Assembly: GCA_964449965.1 (NCBI GenBank)
Contig: CAYVEO010000003.1
Span: 1,052 to 65,051 of the forward strand
DNA length: 64,000 nucleotides
Direction of reading: 5' to 3'
Origin: an uncultured Planctomycetia bacterium
Lineage (GTDB): Bacteria; Omnitrophota; Gorgyraeia; CAYVEO01
The notes under the pieces were generated by a model. It was not told the DNA's origin and searched no databases. It saw only the letters and a program-made list of their open reading frames with translations. Both the position numbers and the translations under genes were made by a program. The first letter of the stretch is position 1. Every line of letters starts with the position of its first letter. Below, in pieces: positions 960-59,783 of the stretch.

Positions 960-1075
960 AAACCCTCTTGATATAATCCTTATGGTTGTAGCGGTCCGCC
1001 TAAGGCGGACCTGTCAGGGTCGGATGGATCCGACCCCTACGAGTAGGACGGGCGTCTCGCCTGTCAAATAACAAA
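960..1075 (+). repeat. GC-rich palindromic repeat (family 1, diverged copy C) in the 5' leader of the SurA-like gene.
   Basis: Contains 'cggtccgcctaaggcggacc' and 'gtaggacgggcgtctcgcctgtca', which match the cores of copies at 9347-9404, 33619-33676, 25326-25352 and 44418-44450. It is followed by the RBS 'aaaggagg' and the ATG at 1090. Confidence 0.55.
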
Positions 1076-2411: not shown

Positions 2412-3845
2412 ATGGCAGAAGTAATAACTACACCAAAAAAAAGCGGGGTGCCTGGAGAAACACAGTTACCCAAATTAGTCAAGGACTACTATGATAAGGG
2501 TCTCTTTGCCTTTAATAAGGCGAACTATGACTATGCAATAGAATTATTCAGTCAGGCACTCGCTTTAAAACATGATTTTGTAGATGCACGGCGCCAGCTC
2601 AGGTTAGCAGAAAAGAAGAGGATTGAAAGACATCCTCCATCCCTGATTAAAAAAAGCCTAATGCAGCTCACAAGTGTCATCCCTCTCGTGATTGCCATGG
2701 CGCTGGATATGCTGGGTAAGAGGATGAAGGCTATAGACAATTATGAGAAGATTCTCAAGACAGACCCTGCTAATATAATCGTCCTGCATCAGATTGCAAA
2801 CCTGTTTATAAAAGAAGGGATGACCGAATCTGCTATTGCCGCCTATGAGGACATCATAGAGGTGGACACCAAAGATATTGGAACGTTCAAAGAACTTGCA
2901 AGACTCTATTCCGAAAAGGGGGATTATAACAGGGCACGATTCTGTTATAACAGTGTCCTCCAGACTCAGCCTGGTGATTCAGATGCAGAGGACGGGCTTA
3001 AAAACATAGATGCCCTGGGCGCCATAAGGAAAGGCAGATGGGATGACCAGACCACCACATACAGGACCAAGATAAAGGACCAGGAGGCATCCCTCAAACT
3101 TGAAAAGGAAGGTAAAAAGGCAAGGACAGAATCTGATATTGAACTATTGATAAAAGATAATGAGGGAAAGTTAAAGACAAACCCAAATGACCCTGTAACG
3201 CTCAGGACACTCGGAGACCTCTACGTGCGGCTCGGGGAGTTAGACAAGGCTACTGAGCGGTATAAGAGGGCTATAGAATTAGACCCGACCAACTATTCCA
3301 TCCAGATCAAACTTTCTGATATTCAGTTTAAGAGATTAGACACCGGTATAAGTGAGAAGGAAGAGGCTCTAAGAAAAACCCCTGATGACATAACATTAAA
3401 GAAAGAACTTGAGGAACTCAAAGAGAATAGAGGAAATTTAGAACTGGATGAGGCAAAAAGAAGGGTAGTCCAGTATCCGAGCGAAACCTCTTATAAATTT
3501 CAATATGGAATACTCCTTGAGAAGAGAGGCAAGAGAGACGAGGCTATAGGTATGTTCCAATTAGCTGTCAATGACCCTGTTTACAGGAACAAGTCCCTCA
3601 ATATGCTGGGACTCTGCTTTCAGCAGAAAAAGATGTTTGACCTGGCAGTGACACAGTTCCAGAAGGCATTGGAAAAAAACACAGACCTGAATGAAGATAC
3701 AAAAGAAATAATCTACAACCTCGGCACAACCTACGAAGAGATGGGCAATCACGAAAAGGCCCATGCAGAATTCAAGAAGATATACGAAGTTGATATAACC
3801 TACCGAGACGTCTCCCAGAAGATAGAAAAAGCATATAAAAAATAA
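2412..3845 (+). CDS. Tetratricopeptide-repeat protein.
   Basis: Multiple TPR-like 34-aa units (e.g. 'AIELFSQALALKHDFVDARRQL', 'YNLGTTYEEMGNHEKAHAEFKKIYEVD'). It follows the upstream gene after a 3-bp gap, suggesting an operon. Confidence 0.6.
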   Translation: MAEVITTPKKSGVPGETQLPKLVKDYYDKGLFAFNKANYDYAIELFSQALALKHDFVDARRQLRLAEKKRIERHPPSLIKKSLMQLTSVIPLVIAMALDMLGKRMKAIDNYEKILKTDPANIIVLHQIANLFIKEGMTESAIAAYEDIIEVDTKDIGTFKELARLYSEKGDYNRARFCYNSVLQTQPGDSDAEDGLKNIDALGAIRKGRWDDQTTTYRTKIKDQEASLKLEKEGKKARTESDIELLIKDNEGKLKTNPNDPVTLRTLGDLYVRLGELDKATERYKRAIELDPTNYSIQIKLSDIQFKRLDTGISEKEEALRKTPDDITLKKELEELKENRGNLELDEAKRRVVQYPSETSYKFQYGILLEKRGKRDEAIGMFQLAVNDPVYRNKSLNMLGLCFQQKKMFDLAVTQFQKALEKNTDLNEDTKEIIYNLGTTYEEMGNHEKAHAEFKKIYEVDITYRDVSQKIEKAYKK

Positions 3846-3849
3846 GAAT

Positions 3850-5184
3850 TTATAATATAGGCAGATACTTATCTAACTCATAATCAGTAATGTGAATACG
3901 GTACCTGTCCCATTCTATCTTCTTATTCTCTATAAAACTGTTGAATATATGGTCACCCAATGCCTTCCGGACAAGTCCGCTCTTCTCAGTCAGAAGGATT
4001 GCGTCGTGCAGATTTCCTGGTAATGTCGCTATCCCTCTCTTCTTGCGTTCCGCTTCGCTCATCTTAAATATATTCTCTTCTACAGGTTCTGGCAATTCAT
4101 ATCCTTTTTCTATTCCTTCAAGCCCTGCAGCCAGCATTACGGCAAATGCAAGATACGGGTTACATGCCGGGTCAGGAGACCTGAACTCAACCCTTGTAGC
4201 ATTCTCTTTTCCTGGTTTATAAACAGGGACTCTGACAAGGTCAGACCTGTTTCGCTCTGCCCATGATAGATATACAGGCGCCTCGTATCCCGGGACCAGC
4301 CTCTTGTATGAATTTACCCACTGATTGGTAATAGAGGTTATCTCAGGTGCATGTTTTAACAAGCCGGCGATATAACATTTACCAACCTTTGACAGGTGAT
4401 AACTGTCATTCTTATCAAAGAAGGCATTCTTGTCTCCCTTAAAAAGGGATTGGTGCGTATGCATGCCGCTGCCATTCTCTCCGAATATGGGTTTTGGCAT
4501 AAACGTAGCATAGACATTGTGCCGGAGTGCTATTTCCTTTACGACCAAACGATAAGTCATGGCATTATCAGCCATGGTAAGCGCATCTGTATATCTCAAG
4601 TCTATTTCATGCTGGGAAGGTGCTACTTCATGGTGGCTGTATTCAACGCCTATACCCATCTCTTCTAATGTCAGGACAGTGTCTCGCCTTAAGTCACTTG
4701 CCACGTCCAAGGGGGTAAGGTCAAAGTATCCGCCCTTGTCAAGGGTTACTGTTGACTTTGAATCCTGGAAATAGAAATATTCAAGTTCAGGCCCCACATA
4801 AAAGGTATAGCCTTTTTCAGCCGCACGTTTGAGATTCTGCTTCAGGATATGCCTTGGGTCACCTTCATAAGGTTCACGATAAGGTGTAAGAATATCACAG
4901 AACATCCTCGCCACTGCATGCTGCTCTCTCGGCCTCCACGGAAGTATCTGAAAGGTATTCGGGTCAGGGAAGGCTATCATGTCGCTTTCATCTATTCTGG
5001 CAAAACCTTCTATAGATGAGCCGTCAAACCCCATCCCTTCTTCCAGCGCCCCTTCCAACTCTTCAATAGTGATTGCAAAACTTTTCAAGAACCCTAATAT
5101 ATCCGTAAACCACAGCCTTACAAATTTTACACCCTTCTCCTTTGCAGTCTTAAGAACGTATTCCTTATCTCTTCCCTTTGCCAT
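3850..5184 (-). CDS. glnA: Glutamine synthetase type I.
   Basis: Motifs 'FDGSSIEGF', 'GPELEYFYF', 'KPIFGENGSGMHTHQSL', 'NSYKRLVPGYEAPVYLSWAERNRS'; 444 aa. Confidence 0.9.
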   Translation of the reverse strand: MAKGRDKEYVLKTAKEKGVKFVRLWFTDILGFLKSFAITIEELEGALEEGMGFDGSSIEGFARIDESDMIAFPDPNTFQILPWRPREQHAVARMFCDILTPYREPYEGDPRHILKQNLKRAAEKGYTFYVGPELEYFYFQDSKSTVTLDKGGYFDLTPLDVASDLRRDTVLTLEEMGIGVEYSHHEVAPSQHEIDLRYTDALTMADNAMTYRLVVKEIALRHNVYATFMPKPIFGENGSGMHTHQSLFKGDKNAFFDKNDSYHLSKVGKCYIAGLLKHAPEITSITNQWVNSYKRLVPGYEAPVYLSWAERNRSDLVRVPVYKPGKENATRVEFRSPDPACNPYLAFAVMLAAGLEGIEKGYELPEPVEENIFKMSEAERKKRGIATLPGNLHDAILLTEKSGLVRKALGDHIFNSFIENKKIEWDRYRIHITDYELDKYLPIL

Positions 5185-7234: not shown

Positions 7235-8535
7235 TCCTCTTTCTCCATCCTTATTACAACGCTCTTTCTCTTCATAATAGGCAAAAGGTCTATCTCCTCT
7301 ATCGCCTGACGAATATTCATTTCATCAGCCTCATGTGTAAGCATGACTATAGGAACTATTCGTTCCTTCATCCTCTCCTTCTGTATGACGCTTGCAATGC
7401 TTATGTTATGTTCGCCTAAAACCTTCGTAATCTGTGCAAATACGCCAGGGCGGTCAATCGCAGAGAACCTGATGTAATATCTCGTCTCTATCTCTTCCAT
7501 TCTCTTTATTCTCTTTATGCTCGCATCATGCACGGGAAAAGGAATCCTCCTCTTTGAATTATGGATTATATTTCTCGCTATATCCACTACGTCGCTAATC
7601 ACAGCGCTGGCAGTAGGCCTCTGTCCCGCGCCCTTCCCATAAAGTAATAGATTGCCTACCATATCGCCTGATATATAGATGGCGTTGAATACCCCGTTCA
7701 CTGAGGATAATAGATGCCCTTTCGGGATGAGGGTAGGATGGACCCTGACCTCTAACTCTTCCCCGACCTTCTTTGCTATAGCGAGCAATTTCAGGACACA
7801 TCCCAATTCATCTGCATATCTTATGTCATTAGGTGAAATATCAAGAATACCCTCTACATGGACATCACTGAGTTTCACGTCTATGCCAAATCCCAATGTC
7901 GCCAGTATTGCTAACTTATGGGCAGAGTCAATCCCTTTTATGTCTAATGAAGGGTCCTTTTCAGCATAGCCTTTCTCCTGTGCCTCTTGTAATGCTACTT
8001 TAAAATCGCAATTCTCATCAGTCATCTTGGTCAGGATATAGTTGGATGTGCCATTTACTATCCCGAATATAGATTGGACGTGATTGGCTATAAGCCCTTC
8101 TCTCAAGGATTTTATTATGGGTATCCCGCCGCCGACACTCGCTTCAAAATAAAGGTCAACATCGTTGTCCAAGGCTGTCTGAAAGAGTTCGCCCTTGCAT
8201 TCTGCCAGGAGTGCCTTATTTGCCGTAATGATATGCTTACCGCTTTGCAATGCCCTTATTATAAACTCCTTTGCAGGATGAATGCCGCCCATTAACTCTA
8301 TAACTATCTTTATATCAGGGTCGTTAATAACCTTGTGGACGTCTGTAGTCAAAAGCCCGGGTTCTACCTCCACATCCCTCGGAGAAATAATGTCCTTGTC
8401 ACAGATAGTTTTAAGCCTGAGTTCAACCCCCACCCTCTTTTCTAAAAAGGATGCTCTTTCTTTTAATGCCTTGACTACACCTGTGCCAATAGTCCCAAAT
8501 CCTATTAGTCCTATGTTTATTGTATTTTTCATCAT
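7231..8535 (-). CDS. hom: Homoserine dehydrogenase with a C-terminal ACT domain.
   Basis: N-terminal '[13 protein letters not shown]', a central HSDH catalytic region and a C-terminal ACT-like segment. Confidence 0.85.
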
Positions 8536-9404
8536 TATCTTTTCCTATTTAATATAAAATCGGCGATGCCTCTCAGGCTATCTGCCTTTTTCCCAAAATT
8601 TCTGAGCTCGTATTTGGCTTCTTCTGTAATTCGGGCTGCTTCGTCCATGGCCCCTTTCGCTCCAAAGTATTGAGCATAACCATCATTGTCAATGACATCA
8701 TCTACAATCTGAAATGCCAGTCCTATGTATTGACCAAATCTAAAGATAGATTTTATCTTTCTATCATCTGCCGTAGTGCCGATAGCCCCTATCTTGACCG
8801 AGGCTGCTATCAATGCACCTGTCTTATGGGTATTGATATATTCAAGGACAGCTAATCCTGTATCATTCTTACCCTTCTCTTCCATATCCACAACCTGTCC
8901 GCCTATCATCCCTGTACTTCCTATAGCCCTTGTAATTTCTCTAATCCTCAATATATTAGTTTCTGAATCTCTTCCCTTAGCCAATAATTGAAAACCTAAG
9001 GTAAGGAGTGCATCACCGGTAAGGATACCGATAGCCTCTCCGAATTTCTTATGGCAGGAGGGTTTACCTCTCCTGTAATCGTCATTGTCCATCGCCGGCA
9101 GGTCATCATGGATAAGTGAGTAGGAATGTATAATCTCTATTGCACAGGCAGATGGCATAACGTCTCCCATATTACCCCCACATGACTGTGAGGAGGCTAT
9201 AGCAAGTATCGCCCTGAGCCTCTTTCCGCCTGAGAAGACAGCGTATCTCATCGCCTTATGAATACTTCTTGGAAATACATCTTCACCAGGCAGATATTTA
9301 TTTAATGCCTCATCTACCCTTTTTTTATTTTCTTCTATATAATCTCTGATGACAGGCGGGACGTCCGCCTTGGCGGACGAGACGCCCGTCCTACTAATTT
9401 TCAT
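8535..9404 (-). CDS. ispA: Farnesyl-diphosphate synthase / geranyltranstransferase. The first ~19 codons are the family-1 repeat, so the true N-terminus is uncertain.
   Basis: Polyprenyl synthase motifs 'LIHDDLPAMDNDDYRRG' (FARM) and 'GLAFQIVDDVID' (SARM). It sits in the classical xseA-xseB-ispA arrangement. Confidence 0.8.
   Translation of the reverse strand: MKISRTGVSSAKADVPPVIRDYIEENKKRVDEALNKYLPGEDVFPRSIHKAMRYAVFSGGKRLRAILAIASSQSCGGNMGDVMPSACAIEIIHSYSLIHDDLPAMDNDDYRRGKPSCHKKFGEAIGILTGDALLTLGFQLLAKGRDSETNILRIREITRAIGSTGMIGGQVVDMEEKGKNDTGLAVLEYINTHKTGALIAASVKIGAIGTTADDRKIKSIFRFGQYIGLAFQIVDDVIDNDGYAQYFGAKGAMDEAARITEEAKYELRNFGKKADSLRGIADFILNRKR
9347..9404 (-). repeat. Family-1 palindromic repeat, copy A (57 nt, includes the ATG).
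   Basis: 'ATGAAAATTAGTAGGACGGGCGTCTCGTCCGCCAAGGCGGACGTCCCGCCTGTCATC' on the minus strand. It is nearly identical to the copy at 33619-33676. Confidence 0.7.
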
Positions 9405-10855: not shown

Positions 10856-11565
10856 ATCTTTAACGACTTCTCCTTGATGCTTATAAACCTGCCATCCCCT
10901 ACGATAATGTGGTCTAACAGGTCTATGTTCATTATCCTGCCGGCATCTATAAGCTGTTTGGTCACCTTCATATCATCTTCACTCGGGGTTGGGTCACCGG
11001 ACGGGTGATTGTGTGCCACGATAAGCCCTGCTGCTGAATACTCCACCGCAGGAAGGAACGCCTCTCTGGGATGGACGAGATTGGCTGTAAGGGTGCCAAT
11101 GGATATTACCTCATCATGGATAAGTTTATTCTTTGTATTAAGGTAAAGCCCCCTCAACTCTTCCTTCTTTAGTTTTCTCATGTCCTCCAAATATTTGTAT
11201 GCATCATCAGGTGACCTTATGATAGGGGTCTTACTCGGGTCCTCTTTAAAGAAACGCCTGCCTAATTCAAAACAGGCGACTATCTGGCATGCCTTTACCT
11301 TAGGGACACCCAATGTCTCCATCATTCTCGCAACATTCCTCTCAAACGTAATCGCCTTTGAGCCATACTCTTTGATAATCCTGCCTGAAAGTTCCAGGAC
11401 ACCTTCCTTCTTAGAACCGGTATTCAGGACTATGGCGAGCAGTTCTGCATTCTTCAATGCCCCTGGCCCATATTTGAGCAGTTTCTCCCTGGGTTTTTCA
11501 TCCTCAGGCAGAACCTTCAGATTGATTTCGTACAATTCATCTGCCATAATTTTTGTAGTTGCCAA
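10843..11565 (-). CDS. radC: RadC-family JAB/MPN domain protein.
   Basis: HhH N-terminal region and the JAMM motif 'HNHPSGDPTPSEDD'. Confidence 0.8.
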   Translation of the reverse strand: MATTKIMADELYEINLKVLPEDEKPREKLLKYGPGALKNAELLAIVLNTGSKKEGVLELSGRIIKEYGSKAITFERNVARMMETLGVPKVKACQIVACFELGRRFFKEDPSKTPIIRSPDDAYKYLEDMRKLKKEELRGLYLNTKNKLIHDEVISIGTLTANLVHPREAFLPAVEYSAAGLIVAHNHPSGDPTPSEDDMKVTKQLIDAGRIMNIDLLDHIIVGDGRFISIKEKSLKIWQR

Positions 11566-12241
11566 CCTTGGTTGGCGTATTTCTCAGAAATGACCTTAGA
11601 ACCAATCTAAAAAACCGTATAGTATCTACAATGGGATTAATATTGCTGTGCTGACCATTGTATATCGTAGTTATGGGCAGAGATATAATCTGAAAATTAT
11701 TTCTTGCCGCCTCTATAAGCATCTCTGACTCTGTATCATAATTTGAGGTAGATAATTTCAAATTATCCAGAACCCCTCTCTTTATAAGCCTGAACCCGCA
11801 CTGACTGTCAGGAACACTCTGGCGGATAAACTTGGATATAAGGAAAGAGGTAAACCTGTTCGTCATCCGTCTTAAGAACGGCATCTTCGCTACATCCTGC
11901 ATCCTGTCCCCTATAATAATCACATCACCCTTCTTTGAACCTGCTTCAATGAATAGCGGAATATCCTCAGGCCTATGCTGGCCATCGGCATCCATTACTA
12001 TTACAGCATCGTAACCTAATTCCTTAATGTATGCAAATCCATCTTTAAGAGACTCTCCCTTGCCCTTGTTTGTCCTATGTCTTATGACAAATGCACCTTC
12101 TCTTGAGGCAATATCACCTGTCCTGTCAGATGAACCATCATCCACCACGATAATATCAGAGACGTAATGCCTTATCCCTTTTATCAGGTCCCCTATATTC
12201 TTTTCTTCATTATATGATGGTAGTAATACAGATACTTTCAT
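11537..12241 (-). CDS. Family-2 glycosyltransferase (polyprenol-phosphate sugar transferase-like).
   Basis: 'VLLPSYNEEKNI...IVVDDGSSDRT', a DxD-like 'MDADGQ' and a C-terminal membrane-association region. Confidence 0.65.
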   Translation of the reverse strand: MKVSVLLPSYNEEKNIGDLIKGIRHYVSDIIVVDDGSSDRTGDIASREGAFVIRHRTNKGKGESLKDGFAYIKELGYDAVIVMDADGQHRPEDIPLFIEAGSKKGDVIIIGDRMQDVAKMPFLRRMTNRFTSFLISKFIRQSVPDSQCGFRLIKRGVLDNLKLSTSNYDTESEMLIEAARNNFQIISLPITTIYNGQHSNINPIVDTIRFFRLVLRSFLRNTPTKVGNYKNYGR

Positions 12242-25325: not shown

Positions 25326-25352
25326 ATGTAGGACAGGTGTCTCGCCTGTCAA
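25326..25352 (+). repeat. Family-1 repeat fragment (copy D).
   Basis: 'gtaggacaggtgtctcgcctgtca' matches the outer arms of copies A, B and C. Confidence 0.45.
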
Positions 25353-26209: not shown

Positions 26210-26227
26210 AACCCACTCCTCTCTTGA

Positions 26228-26275
26228 TTAAGCCCCGACGTAACGTCGGGGCAACTACAATATTTGAAATCCCTG
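26228..26275 (+). repeat. Family-2 repeat copy 1 (hairpin + AACTACAATATTTGAAAT).
   Basis: 'gccccgacgtaacgtcggggcaactacaatatttgaaatccctg'. Confidence 0.7.
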
Positions 26276-27857: not shown

Positions 27858-27904
27858 TAATTAAGCCGAGCAAGCTCGGCAACTACAATATTTTGGAATT
27901 CCTG
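27858..27904 (+). repeat. Family-2 repeat copy 2. The stem sequence differs but its complementarity is preserved.
   Basis: 'gccgagcaagctcggcaactacaatattttggaattcctg' abutting the folE stop codon. Confidence 0.7.
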
Positions 27905-31250: not shown

Positions 31251-32837
31251 TTAATGTTTAAAATGCCTTACGCCGGTGAATATCATGCTTATACCCTTAG
31301 CGTCTGCGGTCTTGATAACTTCTTCATCCCGTATAGACCCGCCAGGCTGTATTATAGCCGTGACGCCTGCACTCGCTGCCATCTCTATCCCGTCTTCTTT
31401 TGGAAAGAATGCGTCACTCGCCAAGACGCTTCCACGTGAGCGTTCCCCTGCCTTTCTGGACGCTATAATAACAGAATCAACCCTGCTCATCTGCCCTGCC
31501 CCTATACCCACAGTCGCTTTATTTTTGACCAGAACTATCGCGTTGGACCTCACATGTTTGGCAATGGCCCAGCCGAATATCAAGGATTTTAATTCCTCAT
31601 CCGAGGGCTTTTTCTTCGTAACGACTTTGAGATTCAAGGCATCTATACTACACACATCCTTATCCTGAATCAATAATCCGCCTGAGACCTTTTTCAAATC
31701 CCATTCTTTATCTGCGTCTTCTCCAAATTCCCCTGTCTCAATGACCCTCATATTCTTTTTCTTTTTAAGTGCCTCCAATGCCTCTGTATCATATCCCGGG
31801 GCAATGACGCATTCCACAAAGTCTGATGAGACAATCTCATTCGCAGTATCCTTATTTAATCTCTTGTTCAAACCTACTATGCTTCCAAATGCAGATAACT
31901 TATCACACTCTAAAGCCGCCTTATACGCTTCTTTTAAGGAATCTCTTAGAGCCACACCACATGGATTGGTATGTTTTATAACGCAGGCGGCAGGCTCGTC
32001 AAATTCTTTTACCAACTGTAAGGCAGCATCCAAGTCAAGGATATTGTTGAATGACAGTTCCTTACCGTGTAACTGTCTGGCAGAGCCTATAGATGGATAT
32101 TCCCTGACTTTGGAAGCAAATCCCGCATCTTTATAGAATGCCCCTTTCTGATGGGGATTCTCACCGTATCTTAGGTCCTGGAGTTTCTCATATCGTAAGA
32201 GAAGGTTTTCGGCAAATTTACTTTCATCCAGAGTAGTTACCTTATCCTTGAATGCATCGGAAAGAAACTCATATATCATGCTGTCATATCCTGATGTCCG
32301 ATTGAATACCTCTATCGCCAGGCTGGCAAGGGTTTCTCTTGAGAGCGTTAAATCATTTGCTTTAAGTTCCTGAAGGATTTCTTTATACCTATCAGGATTA
32401 CATATCACAGCCACGCTTTCAAAATTCTTCGCGGCAGACCTCAGCATAGAAGGACCACCTATGTCTATGTTTTCAATAGCCTCTTCTAACTTAACGCCTT
32501 CTTTTTGAATCACCTTCTCAAACGGATATAGATTTACTACAACCATATCTATCAAACCTATCCCATATTGTTGGACCTGGCGTATATGTTCAGGATTATC
32601 TCTAAGAGCAAGAAGACCCCCGTGTATCTTTGGATGCAGCGTCTTTACCCTCCCATCCAATATCTCAGGAAAACCTGTCCAGTCTGATACCATCTTCACA
32701 GGGATATTTGCCGACAGGAGTAATTTGGCGGTTCCGCCTGTAGAAAGGAGCTCAATCCCCATCTTATGAAGTTCCCTTGCAAAATCTTCTATCCCCTCTT
32801 TATCTGATACGCTGATTAACGCCCTCTTAACCTTCAT
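31251..32837 (-). CDS. purH: Bifunctional AICAR transformylase / IMP cyclohydrolase.
   Basis: MGS-like N-terminus 'ALISVSDKEGIEDFARELHKMGIELLSTGGTAK' and the AICARFT domain. Confidence 0.9.
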   Translation of the reverse strand: MKVKRALISVSDKEGIEDFARELHKMGIELLSTGGTAKLLLSANIPVKMVSDWTGFPEILDGRVKTLHPKIHGGLLALRDNPEHIRQVQQYGIGLIDMVVVNLYPFEKVIQKEGVKLEEAIENIDIGGPSMLRSAAKNFESVAVICNPDRYKEILQELKANDLTLSRETLASLAIEVFNRTSGYDSMIYEFLSDAFKDKVTTLDESKFAENLLLRYEKLQDLRYGENPHQKGAFYKDAGFASKVREYPSIGSARQLHGKELSFNNILDLDAALQLVKEFDEPAACVIKHTNPCGVALRDSLKEAYKAALECDKLSAFGSIVGLNKRLNKDTANEIVSSDFVECVIAPGYDTEALEALKKKKNMRVIETGEFGEDADKEWDLKKVSGGLLIQDKDVCSIDALNLKVVTKKKPSDEELKSLIFGWAIAKHVRSNAIVLVKNKATVGIGAGQMSRVDSVIIASRKAGERSRGSVLASDAFFPKEDGIEMAASAGVTAIIQPGGSIRDEEVIKTADAKGISMIFTGVRHFKH

Positions 32838-33676
32838 TTCTCAAGCCTCCTTTTAGTGGTCACTTTTCTAAATTCATCTAACAGTTTCTTTGTGATTGAC
32901 CCTGGTTTTCCATCACTTATAATCCTCTTATCTACCGATACAACTGGCATTACTTCTATACTTGTATTTGTCAGGAATACCTCTGCTGCATTATAGACAT
33001 CGTGTCTGGTAATAGGCGTCTCCAATACCTTGAGCCCGCACTTCTCTGCCAGTTCTATGACAACGCCCCGTGTAATTCCTTTAAGGAGTCCTGAATAGAC
33101 AGGAGGTGTCAGAATTATACCGGCTTTCAGAATAAATACATTGCTAACAGAACCCTCTGTAAGATGCCCTTCATGATTTAACATTAGCACTTCAAACGGC
33201 TCCTGATTCATCCCATCTATCTTTGCAAGTATTCCCCATAGAAAATTGGATGACTTGACACTGGGCAAGATGTCTTTTGGAGAATCCCTCCATACAGCAG
33301 AAGTCATAACCTTTACCCCATTTTCATAATATTCAAGAGGATAAGGGACGAACTTCTTAACTATTATTTCAACGTTTTCTGCACATATACTTACCCTTAT
33401 ATATGTATTTTCTATATGACATTCAGCGAGTTTCTCTTTAATCAACCCTGCTAATATTTTCTTTCTATACGGCATTTTAAACCCTATGGAATTGGCAGAT
33501 GCGAATAGTCTGTTTAGATGCTCATCAAGTTTGAAAATCATGCCATTATACGCACGCATACTTTCAAATATGCCACTTGCACCATTTTCCATGAGTTCTA
33601 TGGAGATACTGCTGTTACTGATGACAGGCGGGACGTCCGCCTTGGCGGACGAGACGCCTGTCCTACAATTTATCAT
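32834..33676 (-). CDS. pabC: Class IV aminotransferase. Context suggests aminodeoxychorismate lyase. The N-terminal 19 codons are the family-1 repeat, so the true start may be downstream.
   Basis: Fold-type IV motifs 'GIFESMRAYNG...HLNRLFASA' and 'EGSVSNVF'. It sits immediately downstream of pabB. Confidence 0.65.
   Translation of the reverse strand: MINCRTGVSSAKADVPPVISNSSISIELMENGASGIFESMRAYNGMIFKLDEHLNRLFASANSIGFKMPYRKKILAGLIKEKLAECHIENTYIRVSICAENVEIIVKKFVPYPLEYYENGVKVMTSAVWRDSPKDILPSVKSSNFLWGILAKIDGMNQEPFEVLMLNHEGHLTEGSVSNVFILKAGIILTPPVYSGLLKGITRGVVIELAEKCGLKVLETPITRHDVYNAAEVFLTNTSIEVMPVVSVDKRIISDGKPGSITKKLLDEFRKVTTKRRLEK
33619..33676 (-). repeat. Family-1 palindromic repeat, copy B (57 nt, includes the ATG).
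   Basis: 'ATGATAAATTGTAGGACAGGCGTCTCGTCCGCCAAGGCGGACGTCCCGCCTGTCATC' on the minus strand. Confidence 0.7.
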
Positions 33677-35192
33677 AACCGCCTACAATGTCCACTGCCT
33701 TAAATAATGCCTCTGCCTTGTAGAGCGTCTCATAATATTCCCGGACAGGGTCTGAATCTGCTACGATACCTGCACCTACCTGTAGATACCCCATGCCTTT
33801 GGTAAGTATCAATGTCCTTATAACTATATTTAAGTCCATGTCTCCATTGAAACTTAGATATCCTATTGAACCTGTATAGATATTCCTGGTTACGGGTTCT
33901 AACTCGTCAATGATTTCCATACACCGGACCTTGGGACAGCCTGTTATGGTTCCGCCGGGAAAACCTGCCCTCAACAGGTCAAAACAGTCCATACCGTGTC
34001 TCATCTTGCCTACTACATTGGACACTATATGGAAGACATGGGAATATTCCTCAAGCACAAGGAATTCATCTACCAATACACTCCCATATTCACATACCCT
34101 GCCCAAGTCATTCCTTTCCAAATCAACGAGCATTATGTGTTCTGCCCTCTCTTTTTCATTAAGTATTAATTCGTTAGACAATCTCCTGTCTTCTTCATCG
34201 GTCTTACCCCTCGGCCTCGTTCCTGCTATCGGACGGGTCTGGACATCCCTGCCTTCTAACTTCAACAGCCTCTCAGGTGATGAACTCACAATCTGTAAAT
34301 CGCCTAAGTCAAGATAAGCCGCAAAAGGCGATGGATTGATATTCCTCAGTGCCTTATATAAGACAAACGGGTCATGCTCACAGGGAATAGAAAACCTCTG
34401 TGATAGATTGGCTTGGAATATATCGCCTGACGCGATATATTCCTTTGCCTTTTTTACTATTTTACAGAATCCTTCTTCGGTAAAGTTGGATTTAATAGAT
34501 GTTAAATTAAGCCCCGACGTAACGTCGGGGCAACTACAATATTTTGAAATTCCTGTACACTCTAAATTATTACCTTCCCTTAACCTTGCAACAACCCTTT
34601 CAATCTTATCAACGGCTTCGTCGTAAGATTTGTCAGTATCCTCAATACCCTTGGCGTTTGAAATAACCTTGACACTGCCCTTAATATGGTCAAATGCAAT
34701 GATGGTATCAACAAATAGAAGATTTATGTCAGGTATTTCAAGGTCATCCTCTGCTATTCTCGGAAGGCTTCCAAAGAAGTGTCTGATATCGTATCCAAAA
34801 TATCCTACGGCCCCGCCTGTCCAATTTGGCAAGCCATCTAAGCGGACAGAATGCAGGTTATTAAAGAGCCGCCGCAATTCTAATACAGGGTTTCCTTCAA
34901 GCCGCTCAGTATTTCCGTCTCTTCTTACAATCTCTATACATCTATCCTTGCTCCTGAATACCATAAATGGATCAAAGCCTATAAATGAATATCTCCCTGT
35001 CTTTGGATGAACCCTGGCGCTCTCAAGAAGAAAACTGTTCTTGCCTGGATTCAGCCTCTCAAATATTTCAGAAGGTTCGGGGACAGTCCCAGAACAGGGA
35101 CAGTCCCCTTTAGCATTTAACTCCTTATAAACAGGCACCATCAAGCCTTCTTTAGATAATTCTTTGAATGTTTTCTTATCAGGGTAATACAT
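33663..35192 (-). CDS. pabB: Aminodeoxychorismate (or anthranilate) synthase component I. It carries a 19-codon in-frame insertion derived from the family-2 repeat.
   Basis: Chorismate-binding domain 'IASGDIFQANLSQRF', 'PIAGTRPRG', 'VDLERNDL'. Pairs with the adjacent class IV aminotransferase. Confidence 0.8.
   Translation of the reverse strand: MYYPDKKTFKELSKEGLMVPVYKELNAKGDCPCSGTVPEPSEIFERLNPGKNSFLLESARVHPKTGRYSFIGFDPFMVFRSKDRCIEIVRRDGNTERLEGNPVLELRRLFNNLHSVRLDGLPNWTGGAVGYFGYDIRHFFGSLPRIAEDDLEIPDINLLFVDTIIAFDHIKGSVKVISNAKGIEDTDKSYDEAVDKIERVVARLREGNNLECTGISKYCSCPDVTSGLNLTSIKSNFTEEGFCKIVKKAKEYIASGDIFQANLSQRFSIPCEHDPFVLYKALRNINPSPFAAYLDLGDLQIVSSSPERLLKLEGRDVQTRPIAGTRPRGKTDEEDRRLSNELILNEKERAEHIMLVDLERNDLGRVCEYGSVLVDEFLVLEEYSHVFHIVSNVVGKMRHGMDCFDLLRAGFPGGTITGCPKVRCMEIIDELEPVTRNIYTGSIGYLSFNGDMDLNIVIRTLILTKGMGYLQVGAGIVADSDPVREYYETLYKAEALFKAVDIVGGYDKL
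34504..34555 (+). repeat. Family-2 repeat copy 3, located inside the pabB reading frame. On the coding strand it translates as 'GISKYCSCPDVTSGLNLTS'.
   Basis: 'ttaagccccgacgtaacgtcggggcaactacaatattttgaaattcctg' is identical in hairpin and tail to copy 1. Confidence 0.7.
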
Positions 35193-39011: not shown

Positions 39012-40934
39012 CTAATACGCCTCCTGCCAGTTAGTAGTTGTAATCAGATAATTTGCACTTCCACCCAAACCTGTAAATCCTGGTATGGAACTAATACTGC
39101 TTGCCAATGCAGGAACCTGGTATATCTTTGGTACTTGACTGCCTAAACTGAAATAATTGGATACGAAAGACCCTGCGATTTCGTTCTGCTTGGCGCTCTC
39201 AATCTCACCCTCAGCATAGAAAGCCCCTATCATCTTGAGCTGGGAATCTCCTCCACCAGTGGCTAATTCTATATCTCCATCTGCTATAAGTCCAAGGGCA
39301 TCTGTAGATGGGAATATCCCTTGTGATAAAAGGTCACCATGGACCTCAAATTCCTCACTAAATAGAGAGCCTCTTCCTGTATATTGAATCGTCATATTCT
39401 TTTCTCCGAGTTTCAATTCACCTCCACTGCCAGCATCACTCCCATCTGTTATCCGGACAACACCACTGATAGTCAGTATCCTGCTTGCACTATTCCATGC
39501 GATGCTGCCATAAGCACCTACGTAACTGAAATTACCTGTGCTTGAGTCAATCTTTCCTGAGATAAGATCTTCATTTAAGGAATAAGAATTATCTGCCAGC
39601 CATGCCCTATATGTTGAATAACCTCCATACGGGTCATTCAAACTCGGAAAACTGACCATATCATCCAGGTCATATGGGTTTGTAATCCCATTATCTGAAT
39701 TGACATTTGAAGGACCCTGGGTCCCTCCAAATCCATCATAATATGTGCCAGGTGTGTTATCTCCATCATATGGACCAACATCTACATATACCCCATCCAT
39801 AGTCTCCTTGACACTATTACCTGACACGTTAGTCTGTCCCACTGTAGCACTACCTGATAAGTCTGTCCTACCATTCTTTACCCTGAACTCAGCACTTAAA
39901 CTCCCAACCGTCTCACCGTTAAATGTTACTGTAGGAAGTGGAGGAATTCTGCTTGATAAATCCGCTGGCATACCTTCATAATTATTCCCTATACTGGCAG
40001 TTCCGCTCAAGTCAATGGCTGTATCAGTAGAAGCCAGACCAGAGCCAAGGATATGGACAGAACCATGTAGATAGACATTCCCGCTTATAGCTGAACCACT
40101 CGCCCCTGTCCCTGCAAAGACTGCGTTATTCCATGGAGAGATATTTTTTATCCTTACATAAGCCTGAACCTTCCTTGTAACATTATTATAAGTCCCCTGG
40201 GACCTCACCCATATCTCATCTGTTTCATTTAGGACGTTCTTAAGAGAAGCACTGTAACTGCCGCCGCCAAGATAATTAGAATATAGTGTATAAAAATTAT
40301 TCTCATCCGGGCCAACAACGTAAGCATTAATACTTCCATCACTCCAGCTTGGCGAACCTCCGCCGTTTACAAAATCCTGTTTTAAATCATATAATGCCCG
40401 CTGGAACCCGCCCTCAGCTATATATAGCGCCTTCAGAGAATCCCCTTGACGCACAGTTGCCCTGATTTCGTTATTGCTCAATTTTATAAAACCGGTAGCA
40501 ATAACAACCAGGAGCAGCATAAACGCCATTACCAGGACAAAGACCAACCCTTTTTCATCCCTTTTCATTTTAATAGATACCTTGCTAAAAATTATATATA
40601 ATCCCGCACAGAATAATAATAAGAGAAAATAGAAATCTGGCTTTACATAGAATTTTTTTACGCCTTTTTCAGTCCCTATCAAACCCTTGTCTATCTTCTC
40701 CGTTCCCGGAGACTTCACAATATCTTCTGACCCGCCTTGGTTCAAATCCTTAGCAGATTCTACTCTTTCGGACTCCTTCTGTTTCACCATTTCATTGTAT
40801 TCTTCAAGTGCCTTGTCACGTTCCTGCTGGACAATATATTTCATATCCTCTGGGTCAACATCATCCGGCATCATGGCATAAGAGAATCCATTAAACAGGA
40901 TTACCATGAGTAAAGAAACCTTAAGGACATTCAT
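39012..40934 (-). CDS. PilX_N-domain giant minor-pilin-like protein, paralog 1. A probable alternative start at 40568 would give 518 aa.
   Basis: 'KGLVFVLVMAFMLLLVVIATGFIKLSNNEIRATVRQGDSLKALYIAEGG' (PilX N-terminal signature), then a G/S/T/N/Y-rich β-region. The 5' ~130 nt are nearly identical to paralog 2. Confidence 0.55.
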   Translation of the reverse strand: MNVLKVSLLMVILFNGFSYAMMPDDVDPEDMKYIVQQERDKALEEYNEMVKQKESERVESAKDLNQGGSEDIVKSPGTEKIDKGLIGTEKGVKKFYVKPDFYFLLLLFCAGLYIIFSKVSIKMKRDEKGLVFVLVMAFMLLLVVIATGFIKLSNNEIRATVRQGDSLKALYIAEGGFQRALYDLKQDFVNGGGSPSWSDGSINAYVVGPDENNFYTLYSNYLGGGSYSASLKNVLNETDEIWVRSQGTYNNVTRKVQAYVRIKNISPWNNAVFAGTGASGSAISGNVYLHGSVHILGSGLASTDTAIDLSGTASIGNNYEGMPADLSSRIPPLPTVTFNGETVGSLSAEFRVKNGRTDLSGSATVGQTNVSGNSVKETMDGVYVDVGPYDGDNTPGTYYDGFGGTQGPSNVNSDNGITNPYDLDDMVSFPSLNDPYGGYSTYRAWLADNSYSLNEDLISGKIDSSTGNFSYVGAYGSIAWNSASRILTISGVVRITDGSDAGSGGELKLGEKNMTIQYTGRGSLFSEEFEVHGDLLSQGIFPSTDALGLIADGDIELATGGGDSQLKMIGAFYAEGEIESAKQNEIAGSFVSNYFSLGSQVPKIYQVPALASSISSIPGFTGLGGSANYLITTTNWQEAY

Positions 40935-42656
40935 CTAATTTTGACTCCATGTTATAACACGGGGAGGTTCAAGTCCTCTCGGAAGGTGAAAATCATCCCC
41001 TCTTGAACGTACCCTTATATCATAATTCATCTTTATACTTCCACTATAGACCATCGCCTCATCCCTAGAAACCATACCCCCGTTTACAGAAAATGCCCCT
41101 AACTTTCCAGTGATAACATGGTTTGTATAAATAACAGCATTTACATTCTGAACATTTACTGATGCCCCTATAGAAGTTATGGTACTATCTGCAAGGGATG
41201 ATTCATAATATTTCCTTGAGGCGCCTCCAACTTTTGTTCCACCATCACTTACCGTATAGTTGCCATTGAACAGGTAGCCATTTCCTGAATAATTGTCAGA
41301 ATCATAACCCAATGGCGCATCTGTGGCGTCTGTTGTATAGGCTTGAGTAAAAGGCGGCCTGAGGTAGGTTAAACAGTTAGATTGCCAGCCTGTATTCGTA
41401 TAATTCCCAATCACGACATTTCCCTTTGCTGCGAGTCCGAGAAAATCCCTTGAATTATTAGTGGTATCTGTCTGTGCGGGATTTGTATCCGGCTTGGGCC
41501 ATGCAGGTCCATTGGCATACGTAAGGTTATCCAGTACGTGGATATTTCTACCTGCATATATTGTCCCCTGACCCTGCACCGTTCCCTTTATCAAGAGGTC
41601 TCCATTTACCACAACAGGACCACTTAGGACAATCGGATTAGAAACTGTACCGGTAAGAACTATACTGCCATCATCTGGTGTCCCGGTAACATTGTCAGGA
41701 CCAGTTCCTGAATAGACATTATTAACAAGAGTAACGCCACCCTGGGTTATTTGCCCATTTTCAGCAATTGCTATATTTCTATAATCTTGCAGGTCTCCAA
41801 GATAAGGCATATCAAGTACCTGCTGATATTGGTAACGGGTGCTTGTTCCATTATAACCGGGTTCATAGGCATAGGTATCAAGTTGGCCGCTCATATTCGT
41901 ATCTTCTCCTGAGTCAAGCAGCCCGTTAGAATTTGAATCCTCACTCGTTGCGGTAGGATTTGTCGGTCTTGCCTGGGCAGGTGCATTGCTTCTATACCAG
42001 GAGATGGTATTATTTCTACTGCTTCCTGTTATTGTCCCTGCAGCGCCGAGTGCTGTATTTATGGCCGCATATATATCACCATTTACAGTTGGGTTCCCGC
42101 TAAATGCAAAGTTACCATTAGACCTGGTATTTCCATGTGCAGTTATGCCTGCCCCATAGAACCATCCAAAATTATTGATAAAATAGGCATAGTCAAATAC
42201 GCCTGACGCCCTAAGTTCATACCTGACAGTACCACGGACTTTTCTTATTTCATTTCCGACGGTAGCAGTGGAAAGCATCTCTACGTCACGTTGTCCTGTC
42301 CCAGGGGTTGTAACGGACGTTACAGTTACAGTATATCTTCCTCCACCGAGTATTTCATTCGTTGGGAGTCCACCAGTATAATTACTCGGATTATCAAACC
42401 ATGTAAAGGACGAGGTTGCCCAGCCGCTTGCTATAAATACATCTCTAAACGAATTATACAGAACCTGCTTTGCCTTATCAATCCCGCCCTCAGCGATATA
42501 AAACGCCTTCATGGAATCCCCCTGGTGCATAGTCGCCCTGATTTCGTTATTACTCAATTTTATAAAACTGGCGGCAGAGACAACCAATATGACCACAAAT
42601 GCCATTACTATGATTAAGACAAACCCTTTTCTGTTCATTTTCGTAACATAGGACAT
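40935..42656 (-). CDS. PilX_N-domain giant minor-pilin-like protein, paralog 2.
   Basis: 'KGFVLIIVMAFVVILVVSAASFIKLSNNEIRATMHQGDSMKAFYIAEGG' and a strong RBS (AGGAGG); 573 aa. Confidence 0.6.
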   Translation of the reverse strand: MSYVTKMNRKGFVLIIVMAFVVILVVSAASFIKLSNNEIRATMHQGDSMKAFYIAEGGIDKAKQVLYNSFRDVFIASGWATSSFTWFDNPSNYTGGLPTNEILGGGRYTVTVTSVTTPGTGQRDVEMLSTATVGNEIRKVRGTVRYELRASGVFDYAYFINNFGWFYGAGITAHGNTRSNGNFAFSGNPTVNGDIYAAINTALGAAGTITGSSRNNTISWYRSNAPAQARPTNPTATSEDSNSNGLLDSGEDTNMSGQLDTYAYEPGYNGTSTRYQYQQVLDMPYLGDLQDYRNIAIAENGQITQGGVTLVNNVYSGTGPDNVTGTPDDGSIVLTGTVSNPIVLSGPVVVNGDLLIKGTVQGQGTIYAGRNIHVLDNLTYANGPAWPKPDTNPAQTDTTNNSRDFLGLAAKGNVVIGNYTNTGWQSNCLTYLRPPFTQAYTTDATDAPLGYDSDNYSGNGYLFNGNYTVSDGGTKVGGASRKYYESSLADSTITSIGASVNVQNVNAVIYTNHVITGKLGAFSVNGGMVSRDEAMVYSGSIKMNYDIRVRSRGDDFHLPRGLEPPRVITWSQN

Positions 42657-43591: not shown

Positions 43592-43921
43592 TCACTCAAT
43601 CGTATGCCCCTGTGAGTTCAAGGTACAAGTCGGGTATGTCCCTATTGTCCCGTAGGTGTATGTCCCTGCACCTGGACAGGCAGGAACAATAGAACCTAAA
43701 TAGCCGTTTATCTGTGCCTCTGTGACAGATGCCCCATTCTGAAGGCTATAATCCATAGCATATTGCTCCTTGGCAGCATTAATCTGGCTCAAGTTTGCTA
43801 TGCAGCCATTCTTACGCGCCTTTGCCCCGGCATTTATAAAACTCGGTATTGCAATACTCGCTATTACGGCTATTATTCCAACCACTATCATGATTTCTAC
43901 AAGGGTAAAACCTTTTTTCAT
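43592..43921 (-). CDS. Type IV pilin / pseudopilin (PilA-like, second copy).
   Basis: 'KKGFTLVEIMIVVGIIAVIASIAIP', two Cys pairs and a 'CIANLSQINAAKEQY' region homologous to the upstream pilin. Confidence 0.75.
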   Translation of the reverse strand: MKKGFTLVEIMIVVGIIAVIASIAIPSFINAGAKARKNGCIANLSQINAAKEQYAMDYSLQNGASVTEAQINGYLGSIVPACPGAGTYTYGTIGTYPTCTLNSQGHTIE

Positions 43922-44417: not shown

Positions 44418-44450
44418 ATAAATCTCCGCCTAGGCGGACGGGCGACCGCT
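44418..44450 (-). repeat. Family-1 repeat copy E in the pilA 5' leader.
   Basis: Minus strand reads 'gtagcggtcgcccgtccgcctaggcggag' (compare copy C 'gtagcggtccgcctaaggcggacc'). Confidence 0.5.
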
Positions 44451-44471
44451 ACATTTTACATTTTATATAGT

Positions 44472-44488
44472 AGCAATTTTCATGCCAA
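44472..44488 (-). promoter_or_regulatory. σ54 (RpoN) -24/-12 promoter for pilA.
   Basis: Minus strand reads 'TTGGCATgaaaaTTGCT' (TGGCAC-N5-TTGCW with GG-N10-GC spacing). It lies ~85 nt upstream of the pilA ATG. A σ54-dependent NtrC-family regulator is encoded immediately upstream. Confidence 0.6.
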
Positions 44489-44617
44489 AGCAACAAAATA
44501 GATATACTAAGTTTATAACTTATTTATAAATAAAGACTAAAGATTATTAGGATAGGTTTTGGGCAGGATGGCTTAGACAAGCAAAAGTGACAAATTTTGT
44601 AACTTTGTCATTTATAG

Positions 44618-51162: not shown

Positions 51163-52304
51163 CTTCCTCTCAATAACTCCGCAGTAATAATCGTCCTCTG
51201 TATCTGGCTTGTCCCTTCGTATATCTGATAAATCTTCGCATCACGCATCAATTTTTCCACAGGATATTCCTGTGAATAACCATACCCGCCAAAACACTGG
51301 ACTGCATCCGTAGTAACGCGCATAACCATATCTGCTGCAAATGCCTTGGCAAACGCCGCCTGCTTTGTATTCTTTATCCCATGGTCAATAAGCCATGCGG
51401 CATGCCATACAAGAAACCGCGCAGCGTCTATGTCCATTGCCATATCTGCTATCTTAAAACTTATACCCTCGTATGAAAGTATACTCCTGCCAAAAGCCTT
51501 CCTCTTTCTGGAATAATTTAAGGCGTGTTCCATTGCAGTGCGCGCCAGCCCTACCGCAGCAGCCGAGACCATTGGCCTGGTATGGTCAAAGGCAGCCATT
51601 GCAATTCTGAATCCCTCGCCTTCCTTTCCCAAAAGGTTCTCTTTTGCCACCTGGACATCCTCAAACGTAACACGCACGGTATTGGATGCATGCTGACCCA
51701 TATTCTGTTCCTTTGGTCCTCTCACAATCCCAGGCGTATCTGCCGGGACTATAAATCCACTCAGTGACTGATACCCTTTACCAGGGTCTGTATTCGCTAA
51801 TACAAAATACCAACTGGCGACCCCGCCATCAGTAATCCACCACTTGGTCCCGTTCAAGACGTAGTCATCCCCTGTCTTTTTTGCCGAGGTCTGTATCCTC
51901 GCCACGTCTGAACCTGCCTCAGGCTCTGTTACGGCATAGGCAGCGAATCCAAAATTTTTACATAAGGTAGTGAGGAACCTCTTCTTCTGGTCATCATTGC
52001 CAGCCACTATAATAGGTGCCTCTGCCAGGCTGTTTGCCTCCATGGCTGTGCCTATGCCGGTACAACCCGCACCAATCTCCTCGGCAACTATGCATCCCTC
52101 CAGAACTCCAAGACCCAATCCGCCGTATTCCTTTGGGACATGGGTGTTCATCAACCCGAGTTCCCATGCCTTGCGGCATATATCCCTCGGAAACTCACCA
52201 GTCTTATCATGATAGGCAGCCTTTGGGGCAATTTCATTTTTTGCAAATTCACGTGCCTTTTCCTGAAGTTTAAGCTGTTCCGGACTCAGACTAAAATCAA
52301 TCAT
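51159..52304 (-). CDS. Acyl-CoA dehydrogenase (short/medium-chain type).
   Basis: ACAD N-terminal, middle and C-terminal domains; '[13 protein letters not shown]' near the C-terminus. Confidence 0.85.
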
Positions 52305-52318
52305 TAAAGACCTCCTGT

Positions 52319-52419
52319 TGTAACGGAAGGCTTTAGCCTTCCATATCTGGAGACTTGTAAGGGAAGCCTTTAGGCTTCCATTGGAGACCTAAAGGTCTCC
52401 GCTACTATGTCTCCGTTAC
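52319..52419. other. Structured region made of three tandem perfect 7-bp/4-nt-loop hairpins of different sequence, bracketed by a short outer complement.
   Basis: 'ggaaggcTTTAgccttcc' (52325-42), 'ggaagccTTTAggcttcc' (52362-79) and 'ggagaccTAAAggtctcc' (52383-52400). 'gtaac' (52320-24) pairs with 'gttac' (52415-19). Confidence 0.5.
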
Positions 52420-59698: not shown

Positions 59699-59783
59699 TG
59701 TATAATTTCCTTTGAGCGGCAACCTGTCGGGGCGTCATAAATGTCGCCCCTACAATTTAAAGTTAGAAAGAGGGGTATAAATT

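Follow-up and report, generated by a model that had tools for sequence, protein, structure and literature searches.

Why do two unrelated enzymes, a polyprenyl synthetase (IspA) and a class IV aminotransferase resembling PabC, begin with the same peptide? The question is raised by a 64,000-nucleotide (nt) stretch of DNA from an uncultured Omnitrophota bacterium (contig CAYVEO010000003.1 of assembly GCA_964449965.1, positions 1,052 to 65,051; the whole stretch is referred to below as the window), in which the open reading frames (ORFs) 8535–9404 and 32834–33676 both begin with 19 codons sharing RTGVSSAKADVPPVI. An initial annotation, made from the sequence alone, had rightly pointed out this shared peptide at the ORF level and ascribed it to a repeat family of at least five copies, always in sense orientation in 5′ leaders and bringing its own start codon, which might be a miniature transposable element with inverted repeats (MITE) or similar repeat, a leader RNA structure, or a protein-binding site. 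We find that the element is very probably a repetitive extragenic palindrome (REP) of the GTAG-tagged superfamily, and not a dedicated leader or tag. The features at issue are the following.

8535–9404, minus strand: ispA (polyprenyl synthetase, Pfam) coding sequence, with the REP-encoded insert between K2 and I19.
9347–9404, minus strand: composite REP at the xseB/ispA junction; REP unit proper 9351–9394.
9363–9378, no strand assigned: inner palindrome, same sequence as 33635–33650; missing in orthologues L003 and L004.
32834–33676, minus strand: pabC-like class IV aminotransferase (Pfam) coding sequence, with the REP-encoded insert after codon 3.
33619–33676, minus strand: composite REP at the pabB/pabC junction; REP unit proper 33623–33666, comprising GTAG, an 8-bp outer stem GACAGGCG/CGCCTGTC, and a nested 21-nt palindrome.
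33635–33650, no strand assigned: inner palindrome GTCCGCCAAGGCGGAC, part of the 21-nt loop insert; missing in orthologue L127.

The repeat copies themselves extend over 9346–9404 and 33618–33676 on the minus strand (ATGAAAATTAGTAGGACGGGCGTCTCGTCCGCCAAGGCGGACGTCCCGCCTGTCATCAG, read from 9404 to 9346, on the ispA side, and ATGATAAATTGTAGGACAGGCGTCTCGTCCGCCAAGGCGGACGTCCCGCCTGTCATCAG, read from 33676 to 33618, on the pabC side). Each is 59 nt long and the two are 93% identical, with four differences, in agreement with the near identity reported initially. Their outer unit, here named REP-A, consists of GTAG followed by GACRGGCG-TCT-CGCCTGTC, i.e. an 8-bp GC-rich stem with a 3-nt loop; in both focal copies a 21-nt palindrome is nested within this loop, giving a composite of 44 nt. 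The core of the nested palindrome, GTCCGCCAAGGCGGAC, is, as had been stated, a perfect 16-nt palindrome in both copies, and a relative with two mismatches is present at 44424–44439. A search of the window for the core with up to three mismatches returned six strand-matches against 0.14 expected, a number reached in none of 100 shuffles. The RNA structure prediction that the initial annotation had called for gives both composites a two-tier hairpin (8 bp, a 3 × 3 internal loop, 7 bp, and a 4-nt loop) of approximately −30 kcal/mol (z-scores relative to shuffled sequences, −3.5 and −4.2). An intrinsic terminator was rejected, there being no T-run after the hairpin, which moreover lies inside operons.

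Scanning the window for GTAG followed by a GC-rich hairpin identified 13 units of several sequence classes, four derived from REP-A and nine other GTAG REPs, against none expected. All 13, including both focal copies, have an unpaired GTAG, then 0–3 nt, then a GC-rich stem of 6–9 bp. The GTAG-REP superfamily is characterized by an unpaired GTAG, stems of 6–13 bp, and loops of mostly 2–3 nt, and comprises 24 families from 8 phyla; within REP families, short loops are found together with long self-complementary ones (Di Nocera et al., 2013, PMC3733652).

REP-A is not restricted to the window. Stretches of GTDB representative genomes that contain its 17-mer GTAGGACRGGYGTCTCG number at least 119 and come from many phyla, the hosts among the matches listed being Cyanobacteriota, Acidobacteriota, Verrucomicrobiota, Nitrospirota, Atribacterota, Armatimonadota, Planctomycetota, Chloroflexota, Syntrophales, and Omnitrophota. 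By our own arithmetic, chance would give up to a few hundred matches to a 17-mer in 596 Gb; we take the matches to be real copies of one REP because, among those listed, approximately 130 of 143 run on into the exact complementary arm CCTGTC and many genomes contain several copies, often in tandem. The 24-nt REP-A is identical across many bacterial phyla, and is abundant in Oscillatoria, Cylindrospermum, and Hormoscilla. No paper giving the exact REP-A sequence was found in a literature search.

At three of the listed loci REP-A lies beside a Y1 transposase. In a Nitrospirota metagenome-assembled genome (L073), the Y1_Tnp gene (936–1490) is bracketed by inverted REP-A copies with their GTAG ends pointing outward, and in Cylindrospermum (L006) REP-A is present on both sides of the Y1_Tnp gene (3662–4192); in Verrucomicrobiales (L057), a tblastn match to the REP-associated tyrosine transposase (RAYT), for which an intact gene was not confirmed, is located within approximately 430 nt of a REP-A copy. 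Several homologues of the L073 RAYT (P0241–P0360) are annotated “REP element-mobilizing transposase RayT,” and 98 of the 120 contain GQASRLS, which is REP-A read in frame, directly before the conserved SWRRHLPHFQL core. Because of the inverted flanking copies and the in-frame REP-A in the RAYT homologues, we regard REP-A as the repeat cognate to a single RAYT family (IS200/IS605-like HUH-Y1) that has been transferred widely. Homologues with 68–89% identity are labeled Nitrospirota, Actinomycetota, Deltaproteobacteria, Schekmanbacteria, and Atribacteria, a distribution that suggests spread of the RAYT family, or of the whole REPtron, between phyla. The REP-A peptide VGQASRLS in these homologues is often present in several tandem copies, and many of the sequences have no Met after it, so that translation of the RAYT apparently runs through its own REP. 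In the Cylindrospermum RAYT, a REP-A variant (GTGAACAGGCGAGACGCCTGTTCTAC; L006, 3930–3960) interrupts the gene in frame, encoding NRRDACST between the HUH motif and the remainder of the protein.

Comparison with relatives reveals that GTAG-REP sites occur both filled and empty at orthologous positions, the pattern expected of mobile units. The ispA, pabC, MFS/SurA spacer, and folE/OEP spacer sites are filled in the window and empty in a relative from Hainich. The three-REP cluster 5′ of the SurA-like gene is missing at the orthologous locus L001, and the REP-containing folE/OEP spacer of the window exceeds that of L125 by 56 nt. At the GT2/radC junction the window has a family-2 REP in antisense and L001 (7820–7848) a REP-A variant in sense, the TAG of which is the GT2 stop codon. 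The antisense REP (11555–11576, within the region 11537–11576) lengthens the GT2 ORF of the window by six codons, and the TTG start assigned to radC by the ORF finder lies within it; a conserved ATG is located 7 nt 3′ of the REP. The names of homologues assign the window to Candidatus Omnitrophota, and at both focal junctions three states are present among Omnitrophota relatives: empty, simple REP-A, and composite. The GTAG tag with its GC-rich stem-loop, the presence of the same 24-mer beside RAYT genes elsewhere, and the presence/absence polymorphism in relatives together bear out the suggestion of a REP/MITE-like element.

The three states are best resolved at ispA, which is preceded by the gene for the small subunit of exonuclease VII (xseB; Pfam) and encodes a 289-residue protein found identically in the protein collection (P0001), the ORF having no exact entry in the contig index. 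The native ATG (9404–9402) has a Shine-Dalgarno (SD) sequence, GGGAAGGT, upstream, and the xseB stop codon TAG (9396–9394) abuts the GTAG, its last base being the first base of the REP. IspA homologues without the element begin MKNRILTYIEE (P0003) or MKDAIRYIEE (P0005), and distant homologues all start MK-I..Y; those with a simple REP-A begin MKISRTGVSPVIRDYIEE (P0002 and P0004; allele start MKISRTGVSPVIRDY), and the composite form in the window begins MKISRTGVSSAKADVPPVIRDYIEE (allele start MKISRTGVSSAKADVPPVIRDY). DNA alignment shows the SD-like GGGGAAGGT, the ATG, and the xseB stop TAG to be common to filled and empty alleles. The simple REP adds seven codons (+21 nt net) and the nested palindrome seven more (+21 nt), such that the window gene exceeds the simple alleles by exactly 21 nt, all within the REP loop. 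The proposal that the element brings its own start codon is rejected because of the empty alleles: an orthologue without the element has the same ispA ATG, and approximately 140 REP-A copies in other genomes, among the matches listed, have unrelated 5′ flanks. As judged from these alignments, the ATG is that of the host gene and not of the repeat. In L004 (228–270), the stem of the ispA REP has changed from GGAC...GTCC to GAAC with GTT on the GTTA side, a compensatory exchange of a G:C for an A:T pair, both substitutions being synonymous when read as ispA; the GAAC/GTTC stem variant is also a REP-A subfamily in Cylindrospermum, and replacement by another subfamily is thus an alternative to compensatory change.

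At the second junction, pabC follows a gene for a chorismate-binding PabB/TrpE-type enzyme (Pfam). The REP unit takes up codons 4–18 of pabC, and the TAG of its GTAG (33665–33663) is the pabB stop codon in filled alleles. The empty state begins MKNANLAMQNIPIEFLENG (P0123), MKNANLAMQN, with an ATGA stop/start overlap with pabB; the simple REP-A state begins MINCRTGVSPVISNSSISVEFLENG (P0122; allele start MINCRTGVSPVISN), and the composite state is that of the window and P0121. The simple REP adds six codons here (+18 nt) and the nested palindrome seven more (+21 nt). The empty orthologue has a ATGAAAAAT start at the equivalent position in a junction too diverged to align; homology of the pabC ATG across alleles would thus rest on the similar ATGAWAAAT start and its position. 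A metagenome scan with the full 30-nt composite pattern gave no match; a relaxed pattern identified one true third copy, in relative L131, in the same frame as at ispA and pabC and inside a continuous 580-residue PMT_2/TPR ORF (peptide SRTGVSSARADVPPV). A further match to the relaxed pattern (L130) was rejected on reading the sequence, as a chance match in a high-GC contig.

The other GTAG REPs of the window are as follows.

988–1011, plus strand: free-standing GTAG REP, GTAGC-GGTCCGCC-TAA-GGCGGACC, with the same core as the nested palindrome; unit GTAGCGGTCCGCCTAAGGCGGACC.
1017–1040, minus strand: GTAG REP of another class, GTAGGGGTCGGATCCATCCGACCC, inverted inside the cluster.
1043–1065, plus strand: simple REP-A, GTAGGACGGGCGTCTCGCCTGTC, third unit of the three-REP cluster, 25 nt 5′ of the ATG of the SurA-like gene.
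11555–11576, plus strand: family-2 GTAG REP, in antisense orientation where GT2 and radC meet.
25328–25350, plus strand: simple REP-A variant (GGTG), intergenic, antisense to both minus-strand neighbors.
26232–26258, minus strand: family-2 GTAG REP, intergenic; its 39-nt repeat (26227–26265) is 100% identical to the pabB copy (34506–34544).
27865–27886, minus strand: family-2 GTAG REP in the folE/OEP spacer; the site is empty in relative L125.
34511–34537, minus strand: family-2 GTAG REP (TTGTAGTTGCC plus hairpin), in frame in pabB, encoding KYCSCPDVTSGLN in the inter-domain linker.
44418–44450, minus strand: GTAGCGGTCGCC...GACGACC REP with palindrome GTCCGCCTAGGCGGAG nested, in the 5′ untranslated region of the pilin gene, 3′ of a sigma54-like promoter.
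52383–52405, minus strand: GTAG REP GTAGCGGAGACCTTTAGGTCTCC, 10 nt past the stop codon of the upstream gene.
59730–59753, minus strand: GTAG REP GTAGGGGCGACATTTATGACGCCC, intergenic.

The window thus contains several GTAG-REP classes, two of them nested, rather than five or more diverged copies of a single 57-nt family. Two of the supposed diverged copies, 1043–1065 and 25328–25350, are simple REP-A units of 23 nt each (consensus GTAGGACRGGYGTCTCGCCTGTC) without the inner palindrome; 988–1011 is a free-standing REP, and 1017–1040 is of a third type on the opposite strand. The description of 44418–44450 as a unit in the pilin-gene leader behind the sigma54-like TGGCATGAAAATTGCT was accurate. 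TGGCATGAAAATTGCT (44460–44500, minus strand) fits the sigma54 −24/−12 consensus and lies upstream of a pilin-like gene with an N_methyl motif, and the nested REP is positioned between it and the ribosome-binding site. Other regions flagged by the hairpin finder (316–365, 43652–43688, and 51967–52022 in the window, and three sites in L001, one resembling 16S rRNA) were discarded as long-loop chance matches in conserved coding or rRNA sequence. A 160-nt direct repeat with 79% identity (40407–40566 and 42483–42642) lies inside adjacent minus-strand ORFs of 640 and 573 residues, which are probably tandem paralogues.

Repeat-derived segments are also present within pabB (33663–35192). The family-2 REP at 34506–34544 (minus strand) encodes 13 residues, in frame, in the linker between the Anth_synt_I_N and Chorismate_bind domains. 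The Hainich pabB orthologue (L124, 1530–1680) has, at precisely this position, a different and longer repeat-derived insert of approximately 50 residues, with IASLTLAMT and HCEESRGIGTTWQS motifs; different repeat inserts at one linker site in two relatives therefore imply a recurrent insertion hot spot. Codons 26–33 of the window pabB (35085–35110, minus strand) encode NAKGDCPC, eight residues more than in the Hainich orthologue, from two tandem copies of the small palindrome GGGACTGTCCC.

Several observations weigh against the view that a RAYT-mobilized REP has inserted into ispA and pabC and is translated with them. The filled and empty states do not track protein identity: P0004 and P0122 are more distant yet have the REP, and the closer Hainich genome is without it; more than one gain or loss per site therefore has to be assumed. 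Neither empty allele is a clean insertion or excision footprint, since 10 nt differ at ispA and approximately 60 nt are unalignable at pabC. No RAYT was detected in the window or in the fetched contigs of relatives by tblastn using the L073 and L006 RAYTs and E. coli YafM. The same 21-nt insert at two REP-A copies would require either loop-specific insertion or gene conversion. The hairpin begins at +15 of the mRNA, where it should hinder independent initiation, and ispA may start at a near-cognate ATC or ATA directly after the hairpin, or pabC at the ATG of a downstream MENG motif.

The alternative that survives best concerns the origin of the composite, which would be the product not of nested transposition but of a loop-length variant of one REP family, either spread by gene conversion (concerted evolution) or arising once and then replacing simple copies. 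Consistent with this proposal, both window copies have one and the same 21-nt insert (CGTCCGCCAAGGCGGACGTCC, or this sequence moved by one base) with the same junctions, the L131 insert differs from them by one loop base only (A to G), and REP families with short loops and with long self-complementary loops coexist in E. coli and Bradyrhizobium. On the other hand, the core is also found free-standing with its own GTAG (988–1011) and nested in a different outer REP (44418–44450), which suggests an independently inserting module, and the homology arms available for conversion are only approximately 20 nt. We consider the conversion or single-origin scenario possible but doubtful, and a palindromic unit inserting specifically into the single-stranded REP-A loop has a slight edge over gene conversion. 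That the inner palindrome is a mobile unit that targets the loops of other REPs (REP-in-REP) and so regenerates the composite, with REPs at TAG stop/ATG start overlaps being kept because the translated hairpin enforces coupling between neighbors in the operon, seems improbable to us; if true, a selfish repeat would serve both as a shared N-terminal segment and as a regulator between cistrons.

With respect to translation, we think it probable that the insert forms the N-terminal part of both IspA and PabC, because the native ispA start and SD sequence precede the insert and none of the insertions breaks the reading frame. At ispA and pabC, for which homologues without the insert are available, it consists of whole codons with no stop; the REP-encoded stretches of pabB and the L131 ORF are likewise in frame. 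The elements might instead be extragenic in practice, with ispA and pabC starting 3′ of a hairpin that is an intercistronic mRNA structure only, the shared peptide then being an ORF-finder artefact. There is precedent for this in Pseudomonas putida, Citrobacter koseri, and Stenotrophomonas maltophilia, where REPs at the 5′ ends of ORFs were mostly judged non-coding (Di Nocera et al., PMC3733652); pabC does have the in-frame MENG ATG, 28 codons on, and a −30 kcal/mol hairpin so close to the 5′ end is unfavorable for initiation at the upstream ATG. In ispA, however, the ATG and SD sequence are kept in the element-free allele, all close and distant homologues start MK at this position, and no ATG, GTG, or TTG occurs between the element and the conserved IxxYIEE block; a start at the next ATG (KAMRY) would cost invariant residues. 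The Met of MENG in PabC is Leu (TTG or TTA) in relatives and lies within a conserved EF(L/M)ENG strand, aligned with the strand before the conserved Gly of distant class IV enzymes. Moreover, all five independent insertion states comprise whole codons without stops. Downstream initiation is thus an unlikely explanation. If the insert is translated, the N-terminal peptide would read MKISRTGVSSAKADVPPV....

The least favored alternative regards the hairpin as a cis-regulatory device under selection (an RNA structure in a leader or between cistrons, or a site of protein binding), which would sit in sense at stop/start junctions and tune the translational coupling or mRNA stability of the flanking genes. 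In three REPs the TAG of the tag either is the stop codon of the upstream gene or abuts it, the stem change in L004 is of the compensatory kind, and G-T pairs in the stems fit RNA pairing. REPs of E. coli located within approximately 15 nt of a stop codon reportedly down-regulate the upstream gene via ribosome stalling. Ten of the 13 window units are also in sense orientation, with GTAG on the coding strand of their neighbors, but this bias is not significant (binomial p ≈ 0.09) and is confounded, the minus strand carrying nearly all genes between 3.8 and 59.5 kb, where GC skew is strong, and the three clustered units not being independent.

The assertion that the element is always in sense in 5′ leaders does not hold within the window, where 25328–25350, 11555–11576, and 1017–1040 are antisense, 34511–34537 is in the middle of pabB, and the focal copies are inside coding sequences. 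In other genomes (at least 119 loci, with genes called crudely as longest ORFs), the same 24-mer lies between unidirectional genes in sense in 24 copies and in antisense in 27, between convergent genes in 16, between divergent genes in 5, and inside an ORF call in 29. This near-even orientation is the outcome that the initial annotation had itself associated with a generic REP, and the larger number of convergent than of divergent contexts suggests a preference for gene 3′ ends, not leaders. Furthermore, the flanking genes are functionally unrelated, close relatives are without the element at the same junctions, one junction has a different REP in the opposite orientation, and an Rfam scan of the whole window found nothing at gathering score. 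The leader-RNA interpretation falls on the missing Rfam match, the empty junctions of close relatives, and the random orientation across genomes, and a cis-regulatory origin in general is improbable.

The preferred interpretation, that of a GTAG REP, may be outlined as follows. REP-A would most likely have spread as single-stranded hairpin DNA by the action of a RAYT. Both focal copies would have landed at overlapping junctions of operon genes, right behind the upstream TAG stop and 2–3 codons into the downstream gene, adding whole codons without stops and, at ispA, leaving the host ATG and SD sequence in place. IspA and PabC would then, most likely, carry a REP-encoded insert of 17 residues after their first residues. 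The hairpin probably makes translation of ispA and pabC dependent on ribosomes arriving from xseB and pabB, which would terminate at the TAG lying at the base of the hairpin. The upstream genes may be dampened by the hairpin, as suggested by the work on E. coli REPs near stop codons mentioned above. The shared peptide would be a side effect of selfish or neutral DNA, which persists only in places where the reading frame is kept.

Every feature described here fits the GTAG-REP frame. In that frame, REPs lie mostly between unidirectional and convergent ORFs, near the 3′ end of the upstream ORF; the TAG of GTAG is often the stop codon of flanking ORFs; and intra-ORF REPs, N-termini included, have been catalogued, with many of the N-terminal cases probably non-coding (PMC3733652). 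As in the GTAG REP/RAYT REPtrons (Nunvar, 2010; Di Nocera, 2013, PMC3733652; Corneloup, 2021, PMC8266576), the present units have an unpaired GTAG at the foot of a 6–9-bp GC-rich stem with a 2–4-nt loop, occur in several classes in one genome as singletons and small clusters of mixed orientation, use the TAG of the tag as an upstream stop codon, and are in some cases intra-ORF; in other genomes REP-A flanks, as inverted pairs, a Y1 HUH transposase gene. In contrast to those systems, the host phylum, Omnitrophota, is not among the GTAG-repeat phyla named in PMC3733652. The cognate RAYT was seen in other phyla only and not in the window, and the focal copies contain a second palindrome in the loop, both being located within the first 20 codons of essential-pathway genes.

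Other repeat families resemble the present one in part. The small dispersed repeats of filamentous cyanobacteria are reportedly palindromic units of 21–27 nt, nested, with mobility inferred from comparison of filled and empty sites, and are said to have been described without a mobilizing enzyme. Compared by description, the present units are also short nested palindromes at filled and empty sites, and REP-A is abundant in Oscillatoria, Cylindrospermum, and Hormoscilla. The Rickettsia palindromic elements (RPEs) are likewise found in frame in unrelated coding genes, giving a shared peptide at permissive positions that include N-termini. RPE-1 is approximately 100–150 bp long; RPEs are not known from outside Rickettsia and should have no sequence relationship to the element described here. 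Ogata et al. (2000, as cited in PMC3733652) described them as selfish DNA residing within protein-coding genes, and N-termini decorated with RPE-1 are expressed (PMC3733652). RPE-1 is a longer palindromic insert (PMC3733652), the present units being 23–45 nt, and the likeness is one of behavior, taken from descriptions. The rickettsial REPs in the same survey are CGTC-tagged with no associated transposase, whereas the present insert carries the GTAG tag and belongs to a REP type whose class of mobilizing enzyme is known. REPINs are RAYT-associated, REP-derived mobile units as well, but consist of an inverted REP doublet, in contrast to the single REP with an internal palindrome found at the focal sites (Bertels and Rainey, 2011, PMC3116915).

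What is added here is Omnitrophota as a host, a palindrome nested in a palindrome at two or three sites, and a preserved series of empty, simple, and composite alleles. Nothing in these observations overturns current understanding. REP-encoded N-terminal additions have precedents in other bacteria. For annotation, the identical N-termini of IspA and PabC and the odd PabB segment are to be read as REP-encoded inserts, not as a signal peptide, tag, or domain; public gene calls already contain them. The two junctions provide a clean case, outside Proteobacteria and Rickettsia, of REPs colonizing first codons at stop/start overlaps, and the occurrence of one 24-nt REP and its RAYT, almost unchanged, in many phyla points to the spread of REPtrons between phyla.

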